This document shows positions 3,001 to 5,059 of a stretch of 5,059 bases of DNA, one piece after another; position 1 is the first letter of the stretch; each line of letters starts with the position of its first letter. Position numbers: made by a program. Source of the DNA: a virus (taxonomy: Duplodnaviria; Heunggongvirae; Uroviricota; Caudoviricetes); the IMG/VR virus record IMGVR_UViG_2681813313_000012, positions 1 through 5,059 of that record. One strand, written 5' to 3'.

Positions 3001-5059
3001 TGGCTTTCCAGATATTGACTTACTATAGAATGGCTTATATCGACAATTTTAACTTTGCCATAATGCATAAGGAAAAGCTCCCTGATGCATTTGGTGGCCA
3101 GAACGACTGAGCCGGGCTTAAGTGACAATGTATCCTTTTCAAGAAAAATATTAATTGGGGAACAAACCATGATAACTGAACAGATAGCAGTCATTATAAT
3201 TTTACTTTAATTAGCAATCGGTTAGCTTAATTATAGCCCCAAAAAGTAAATTCTCATCAACACATAAGCAAATGACTGACAGGTGCCGCTAACACCCACC
3301 AGCCGCCCATTTACCACAAATAAAAAACCTTCAGGACTGAAGGACTCTGTAACAACCAAACTGATAGTCTGCCAGACCCGCCATAACCAGCTGGGTCAGT
3401 ATTAACTGGCAGCGTTCGCGTGAAAGGTACATATTCTGCGCAATCTCCCCGACTGTCGCCGGTTCGGTGACGCTTAACTCATTAAACACCACTCTGGCGG
3501 TTTCGGTCATATCCTGCTGTTTTAGCATGTCTTTTTCCCTTTTCTGGTTAACGTAACATACCAATAACTCTTGTCGAAAAAGCCAGCAAGTTGAAAGACC
3601 GGTATTCGCAACCACCAGCGCGTTTAATGTTCTGTACCGCTTTTCGGGCACAATAAATATCCTCCGGCATAGCCGGAGGTTTTTCAAATGCGCCTATAAG
3701 GCTCTCTTACCAGCCGCGCCCTAACAGGCGCACACGATCTGACATTTGCATCCAACTTCGTTACTTACGGCCCGTAAACGGGCTGCCCGGATAGGGAATC
3801 GATAACTGCTCTCCCATTTTATCCTCTTCAAGCTGGTGCTTTATGTAATCCTGTATCTTCGCCGTGTTCTTACCCACCGTATCGACGTAATACCCTCTGC
3901 ACCAGAACTCCCTGTTCCTGTACTTGAATTTCAAATCACCAAACTGCTCGTAAAGCATCAGACTGCTTTTCCCTTTCAGATATCCCATAAAGCCGGATAC
4001 GCTCATTTTGGGCGGGATCTCCACAAGCATATGGATATGATCTGCACAGCATTCAGCTTCCAGAATCCGTACACTTTTCCACTCACACAGCTTTCTCAAA
4101 ATACAGCCTATTGCTCTACGCTTCTCTCTGTAGAACACCTGTCTTCGGTATTTTGGCGCAAATACTATGTGATATTTACAGTTCCATCGGGTGTGCGCTA
4201 AGCTCTTTTCGTTCCCCATTGGGACCCCCTTTTGATTTCTTGTTTGACACTTGCAGTTGCCAGACCGCAAGGTGTTTTAACAAATCAAAAGGGGTTTTAA
4301 TAACTGGCTCAAAGCTGAAAGCTTTCCGGAACCCCCAGCCTAGCTGGGGGTTTTCTGTGCACAAAAAAACCCGCTCATCGGCGGGTTTAAGCTGTGCGGC
4401 GTAGTAACCACTCTTAACAGTATATTCAACTTTTTACGATCGTAAAGCGTTCGGGGGAAATTTTTAAAGCCGCATCAACCGCTCCACCAGTTGCTCTTTA
4501 CGGGCAACGATCCACCCGTGTTGCTCCAGATAAAATTTAAACCGTTCCAGAGTGCATACCATCGCATCGGCGGGCACCTTTTCCGTGAACTCAACCTGAC
4601 CATGTTTATCGAAGTGGATCAGTAATGCGCATCCATCATTTTCGATAGATGTGTTTTGTGCCGCTGGTGGTTGTTTTTGGTTGAAATAACAGTCTTCCAG
4701 TTTTTCGAATACTTCCCACGCCTGATCGGTTTCGAGCATTTTGGCGTGACGGGCTGCTCCGCGTTCTGTCCAGAGTATGAGCTTTCGGACATTTGGGGCG
4801 ATCGTTTGAAAATCCCTTAAAGAGATTTTCAAATTTTGGAGGTCTGCGCCTTTCGCAATTATGTAGTGCTTCCCTTCTGCAAATCGCTCTTTATTACGGT
4901 GGTGATTTCTATGAATACACTCGACGCTACAGCCATATAGTTTGGCCAGTAACTCTGTAGTGAACCGCCCCGGAAATCCTGGAGACTAAACTCCCTGAGA
5001 AAGAGGTAAACAGGATGACTAAAAATACTCGTTTTTCCCCCGAAGTCCGTCAGCGGGCG

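Follow-up and report, generated by a model that had tools for sequence, protein, structure and literature searches.

The end of an IS1203 copy detaches the start of an ORF6N-domain prophage gene in an Escherichia coli draft contig

Introduction

In O157:H7 genomes, prophages or prophage-like elements harbour 62% of the IS629 copies, insertion shows no sequence-specific target, and IS1203 is treated as an isoform of IS629 (Rump et al. 2011, PMC3271280). In Stx2a phages, IS3-family elements matching IS1203/IS629 have been reported in the Q-S region (PMC10462455). Two complete 1310-bp copies of IS1203 serve as references here, one in the O157:H7 strain PV15-279, where it splits espY2 and is flanked by AAG/AAG, and one in Z1323HEC0108, flanked by GTT/GTT. 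The terminal inverted repeats (IRL and IRR) of the reference copy are imperfect, with the first 13 nt identical, the next 3 mismatched and the next 9 identical again, and the transposase WP_171877072.1 of PV15-279 is annotated with a programmed frameshift and an AL1L pseudoknot.

In lambdoid phages, a promoter followed by a terminator after Q constitutes the classical pR'/tR' arrangement. Phage PA28 carries, in this order, Q, tRNA Ile/Arg/Arg and stxAB. Genes named Ant in the Stx phages PA28 (gp40), P27 and CP-1639 are located upstream of Q, in the nin region, and their antirepressor name is likewise one of annotation. In the Salmonella prophage Gifsy-1, the gene STM2616 stands directly after Q and is followed by a tRNA, a cargo (moron) gene and the lysis genes. 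It is intact, and it is not the antirepressor that has been shown for this prophage: by experiment, the Gifsy-1 induction antirepressor is GfoA, a small protein encoded in the LexA-controlled dinI operon, and trans-acting antirepressors that cross-induce other prophages exist as well (PMC3121763).

In this study, we analysed a stretch of 5,059 nt from the IMG/VR virus record IMGVR_UViG_2681813313_000012 (hereafter the window), for which a first-pass annotation had proposed that an IS629-like insertion had cut the 5' end off an ORF6N-type antirepressor gene, and that the loss of this gene could alter prophage inducibility. Positions are those of the window unless a locus number (L001 and so on) denotes a stretch of another record.

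Results

The window (1-5059) is the reverse complement of the whole 5059-bp draft contig CXZW01000061.1 (GCA_001285525.1), which breaks off 99 nt inside the multi-copy IS1203. Graph assemblers working on short reads end contigs in this way at repeats, and the 99 nt probably equal the k-mer size of the assembler. Both ends of the contig consist of multi-copy prophage or IS sequence. The window thus ends at a short-read assembly break in an IS, and its continuation needs other contigs or long reads.

The features of the window are collected in Table 1. Its last 99 nt correspond to nt 1-99 of the 1310-bp IS1203 copies of Z1323HEC0108 (L003) and PV15-279 (L004), which start with TGAACCGCCCC. Megablast of 4961-5059 (E-value 8e-44) returned 5,825 matching E. 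coli records, and many of the 100% matches are annotated as 'IS3-like element IS1203 family transposase'. Since IS1203 is regarded as an isoform of IS629 (PMC3271280), the term 'IS629-like' of the first-pass annotation was right. The orfA start falls at position 55 of the IS, as in annotated copies; with WP_171877072.1, the window shares only the first 15 orfA codons. This reading frame points away from the ORF6N fragment and is antisense to the prophage late operon. In its TG... terminus, its IRL and its choice of a prophage gene, the element is like the IS629/IS1203 copies of EHEC/EPEC E. coli and Shigella prophages; unlike the complete copies, only 99 nt of it are present in the window. As a side observation, the segment NRPGFPGECFICELRLPDHRFRWKHNKLFLLL recurs in hundreds of public protein database entries called 'hypothetical protein, partial', some of them named after the disrupted host gene. 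These entries represent the right end of IS629/IS1203 read in antisense at the edges of contigs and form a family of annotation artefacts.

Table 1. Features located in the window
Feature	Position	Strand	Basis or match
nanS-p-type SASA family carbohydrate esterase gene, 5' 1715 nt	1..1715	-	Pfam DUF1737, SASA, DUF6645
Three tRNA genes	2205..2454	-	ARAGORN; RefSeq
AraC-family regulator gene, 237 aa	2481..3194	-	PHROG 1450 (unknown function)
IS200C	~3658..4350		
IS200C tnpA	3761..4219	-	
IS200C terminal hairpin CCCCCAGCCTAGCTGGGGG	4332..4350		
Terminator-like hairpin and T-run AAACCCGCCGATGAGCGGGTTT TTTTGTGCAC	4357..4388	-	Consensus match only
ORF6N-domain gene, 3' 497 nt	4464..4960	-	100% identical to intact WP_000211988.1 allele
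TAG, predicted left copy of 3-bp target-site duplication	4958..4960	.	Analogy with reference copies
IS1203 (IS629 isoform, IS3 family), first 99 nt	4961..5059	+	99/99 vs L004 1701-1799
Left terminal inverted repeat (IRL) TGAACCGCCCCGGAAATCCTGGAGA	4961..4985	+	IRL/IRR alignment of reference copy
IS1203 orfA, first 15 codons (MTKNTRFSPEVRQRA)	5015..5059	+	Identical to start of WP_171877072.1

When 4300-5059 was compared by megablast with 5,426 complete E. coli genomes, seven were found to carry a near-identical 'ORF6N domain-containing protein' gene, and in 7/7 the match ends at window position 4963. Over 1-4963, the window matches E. coli Z1322HEC0003 at 100.0% identity, and that strain has an intact copy of the gene (561 nt, 186 aa, WP_000211988.1; the counterpart of the fragment lies at L001 6165-6661). 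The WP_000211988.1 gene of Z1322HEC0003, Z1323HEC0108 and SCU-125 contains the same 497 nt (100% identical; 99.3% to SCU-125) and has the same neighbours, with Q upstream, and with IS200C, a 65-aa gene, an AraC-like gene, tRNAs and nanS-p downstream, whereas in the window the first 64 nt of the gene and everything upstream of them are replaced by the IS end. Compared base by base, the intact target reads ...CTCTGTAG followed by TGACAACTGG..., while in the window ...CTCTGTAG is followed by TGAACCGCCCC...; the uninterrupted gene would read ...CTCTGTAGTGACAACTGG... across the breakpoint. We place the break after 4960, because the TGA at 4961-4963 is the IS terminus and coincidentally also the next three bases of the target. 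A break after 4963 was considered and rejected, the common TGA belonging to the IS terminus, as elements of the IS3 family start with TG. On the model of the reference copies, the TAG at the junction is predicted to be one copy of the target-site duplication, a prediction only, since the right copy lies outside the window.

In an exact search, the left junction gave no match in GTDB species representatives, JGI metagenomes or IMG/VR, and the insertion site of IS1203 in the ORF6N gene is absent from the 5,426 complete E. coli genomes. Such absence from all complete genomes searched would also fit a chimeric contig end, with the gene intact in the real genome, and the length of exactly 99 nt of IS resembles, as we infer, an assembler k-mer overlap at a repeat boundary. 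With an intact gene, however, a graph assembler would have followed the unique sequence rather than switch to an IS k-mer, and a random chimera would not place the join at the exact first base of the IS. Moreover, the identical contig is on record for 2 NCBI samples, and the Logan assembly of run ERR134516 (k=31; L008), which is identical over window positions 3561-4988, has this junction at its end, followed by 28 nt of the IS, as do 2 similar places. The join of gene and IS is therefore reproducible, with the limit that the Logan assembly possibly derives from the same reads as the NCBI assembly, which makes the independence of this evidence uncertain. We consider an assembly artefact extremely improbable.

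Within the fragment, the surviving 497 nt run from the second base of codon 22 to the end of codon 186 and take in the TAA stop codon (4466-4464), and what has been detached is a stretch of 64 nt (21 codons + 1 nt) together with the promoter, the ribosome binding site (RBS) and the start codon. The loss of the 5' end at the IS terminus was thus as the first-pass annotation had described it, and so was the frame, which on the minus strand is open from the TAA up to the first base of the IS (4961); it runs on for 8 codons into the element, to an in-frame TAG at 4988-4986. No start codon stands ahead of the junction, as had also been stated, the first in-frame ATG/GTG/TTG after the IS-internal TAG being a TTG at 4832 and the next ATG being at 4739. 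Membership in the ORF6N family was borne out by an HMM search with Pfam ORF6N (PF10543; gathering threshold 27.8 bits), in which the fragment scored 49.6 bits over profile positions 15-86 of 86, with positions 1-14 missing, and the intact protein 60 bits over residues 12-96.

The lost 21 codons include the first ~10 residues of the ORF6N domain, and the Gifsy-1 homologue, 50% identical as a whole, has the same residue at 19/21 of the lost positions. Because these residues are almost invariant between E. coli and Gifsy-1, a product re-initiated within the fragment would probably be inactive; for the 122-aa product starting at the TTG, an exact-product look-up returned no record, and the look-up with the 91-aa product starting at the ATG led to contig CXZW01000061.1. 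Since the IS cuts off the promoter region, the RBS, the start codon and 21 conserved N-terminal codons, we infer that the remaining 165 codons are a pseudogene without a functional product. A consensus scan of the identical relative (L001 6089-6068) placed a terminator-like hairpin 76 nt downstream of the ORF6N stop codon. In the intact protein (L001 6165-6725, minus strand), the C-terminal half (residues 96-186) matches the stand-alone PHROGs phrog_25059 and phrog_22471, both of unknown function, and is for this reason a separable module; the difference from the Stx-phage 'Ant' genes also lies here.

The most plausible course of events, which we consider likely, is that a copy of IS1203, a common isoform in EHEC/EPEC-type E. 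coli, simply transposed into the ORF6N gene and that the rest of the element, the TAG duplication and the 5' fragment of the gene are located elsewhere. An IS3-family transposition of IS1203 into codon 21/22 would have duplicated the TAG, detached the promoter-proximal part and left the 165-codon pseudogene; the target would have been the gene that comes first after the Q antiterminator in a lambdoid prophage carrying effectors. The remainder of the IS, the TAG copy and a 67-nt 5' fragment, followed by Q, would then lie on another contig of the same assembly, with a right junction expected to read ...GGGGCGGTTCA-TAG-TGACAACTGGGAGCTGG, that is, the IS right end, then TAG, then TGACAACTGGGAGC..., and on through the 282-nt intergenic region into Q. 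A search for the right-junction pattern (IS right end, NNN, TGACAACTGGGAGCTGG) in genome, viral and metagenome contigs found no match, a synthetic right junction of 163 nt had no record covering at least 80% of it among the 5,426 complete E. coli genomes, and the predicted chimeric product (MTTQVSVETLSPITHNQLPVVT, 22 N-terminal residues fused to the IS right-end read-out) returned only read-outs fused to unrelated targets.

The contig shows a single junction and stops within the IS, and an adjacent deletion mediated by the IS, or a recombination between IS1203 copies with deletion or inversion, would equally leave one such junction between IS and target; in that event the 5' fragment would have been removed or relocated, perhaps together with Q and the early region. 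In related strains this prophage harbours several IS1203 or IS3-family copies and therefore substrates for recombination, as in Z1323HEC0108 (L003), whose prophage has IS1203 between the AraC-like gene and IS200C and a second IS3-family copy that splits rem. No recorded product extends across the right junction, but a missing chimeric ORF is weak evidence, as an edge ORF of 166 nt may simply go uncalled. Against a rearrangement, the break lies exactly at the IS terminus and the flanks are perfectly conserved, as in a fresh insertion. Simple insertion is also the commoner outcome of IS transposition. A rearrangement is thus, in our judgement, unlikely, and simple transposition is the reading that we follow below. 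The insertion is recent, because the 4,960 nt beside it and the IS end both match uninterrupted or active copies elsewhere at 100% identity, and its absence from the 5,426 complete genomes marks it as strain- or clone-specific.

In the 100%-identical relative, the ORF6N gene belongs to a lambdoid prophage of roughly 47 kb. Its early part consists of int, exo, dicB, a CI-like repressor gene (WP_001003379.1), cro and O/P-like replication genes; rem, hokD, RusA and Q follow, then the ORF6N gene, IS200C, the 65-aa gene and the AraC-like regulator; and the late part continues with tRNA-Ile/Arg/Arg, a nanS-p-type SASA esterase, holin, lysozyme, terminase, head and tail genes and tccP2. The locus is the Q-to-lysis 'moron' region, which in Stx phages carries stx. 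At the tail-fibre end of the relative's prophage (L009 46480-47514) we observed tccP2 and an espV fragment, and because of these genes the source isolate is probably an attaching-and-effacing E. coli (EPEC/EHEC type), as judged from the 100%-identical relatives only.

Between Q and the ORF6N gene, the relative has a promoter-like TTGACC-18-TATATT and, ~60 nt later, a hairpin with T-run (ACACGCCGCGAGCGTGT-TTTTTATTGT). Gifsy-1 has TTGACA-18-TATATT and the identical hairpin (ACACGCCGCGAGCGTGT and T-run) upstream of STM2616, the module spanning L001 6895-7003 (minus strand) in the E. coli prophage and L011 3225-3336 (plus strand) in Gifsy-1. A consensus scan of the relative, which is indicative only, found no LexA-box-like site near the ORF6N gene. 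On the basis of the consensus matches and the conserved synteny, the Q-dependent late transcript most likely begins with the ORF6N gene.

Several further observations concern the genes downstream of the fragment. A second IS, IS200C, separates the ORF6N terminator from the 65-aa gene; Z1322HEC0003 and Z1323HEC0108 have it and SCU-125 (L002) does not, and hence the late region has been struck by two different IS elements. The AraC-family regulator has its best NCBIfam matches with YdeO (100.7 bits) and GadX (89.9 bits), scores that fall well short of the equivalog cutoffs, and we take it to resemble the prophage-borne GAD-type regulators described in EHEC. The three tRNA genes are Arg-TCT, Arg-TCG and one with a CAT anticodon, called Met by ARAGORN and Ile by RefSeq. 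The order Ile/Arg/Arg is the same as before stxAB in PA28; here a pseudo-ORF and nanS-p take the place of stx, which is absent. The nanS-p-type gene lacks its last 138 nt, being cut by the contig start.

Whether the gene deserves the name of antirepressor is a separate matter, on which only the family assignment of the first-pass annotation stood. The intact protein does match PHROG 2379 'anti-repressor' over its full length (280.7 bits), it is ~56% identical over residues 1-156, which include the ORF6N domain, to the annotated Ant of PA28, P27 and CP-1639, and antirepressors that act in trans and cross-induce other prophages are known (PMC3121763). Taken at face value, these points would make it a true antirepressor, the loss of which alters the inducibility of this or of co-resident prophages. 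The labels are, however, propagated annotation: no NCBIfam model and, by sequence, no solved structure matched the ORF6N protein, and the Stx-phage Ant is longer (224 aa in PA28) with a different C-terminus and lies upstream of Q, whereas the ORF6N gene lies after it. From this position, behind a conserved pR'/tR'-like pair and with no LexA box in the scan, the product would be made only once the lytic programme runs, and a gene expressed only after Q cannot trigger the induction of its own prophage. Antirepressors (the P22 Ant, 186 Tum and GfoA class) bind and inactivate the prophage repressor; the expression upstream of induction that is expected of them, such as control by LexA or by a repressor of their own, was thus not found in the consensus scans. 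The same slot in Gifsy-1, directly after Q and behind the same promoter-like element and the identical terminator hairpin, holds STM2616, which, in another host genus, is 50% identical to the ORF6N protein over its full length and almost the same at the N-terminus, whereas induction there is the role of GfoA. In addition, the WP_000211988.1 allele is independently broken in other strains, by a 13-bp tandem duplication (GATCGCCCCAAAT) in GCA_023882615.1 (L006 1697-2270) and by a 1-bp deletion and two substitutions in the Logan assembly of SRR33053932 (L007 853-1412), which suggests that the gene is dispensable. We therefore see very little chance that the antirepressor reading is correct, and the proposed effect on inducibility is unsupported.

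Discussion

The junction described here belongs to an ordinary kind of event, the inactivation of a prophage gene by an IS, and both partners were already annotated in public records. Strain-specific IS629/IS1203 insertions in prophage accessory genes have likewise been catalogued and are used for EHEC subtyping. If the ORF6N gene acts late, as a Q-dependent accessory gene, and does not trigger induction, the effect of its knockout on the phage would be expected to be small.

A role in trans can also be imagined, in which the ORF6N protein, as the product of a Q-dependent 'first late gene' conserved between Salmonella Gifsy-1 and the effector-carrying prophages of E. coli, acts on the repressors or the DNA of co-resident prophages. 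We rate this as very improbable. Were it true, one induced prophage would wake others, the IS1203 insertion would uncouple this prophage from them, and the insertion would in principle be reversible by IS excision in excision-enhancer strains.

For the annotation of lambdoid prophages, these results mean that the name 'antirepressor' on ORF6N genes located after Q is not to be taken as indicating a role in induction. The arrangement of Q, pR'/tR' and ORF6N gene, which the E. coli prophage has in common with Gifsy-1, marks an uncharacterised late gene.
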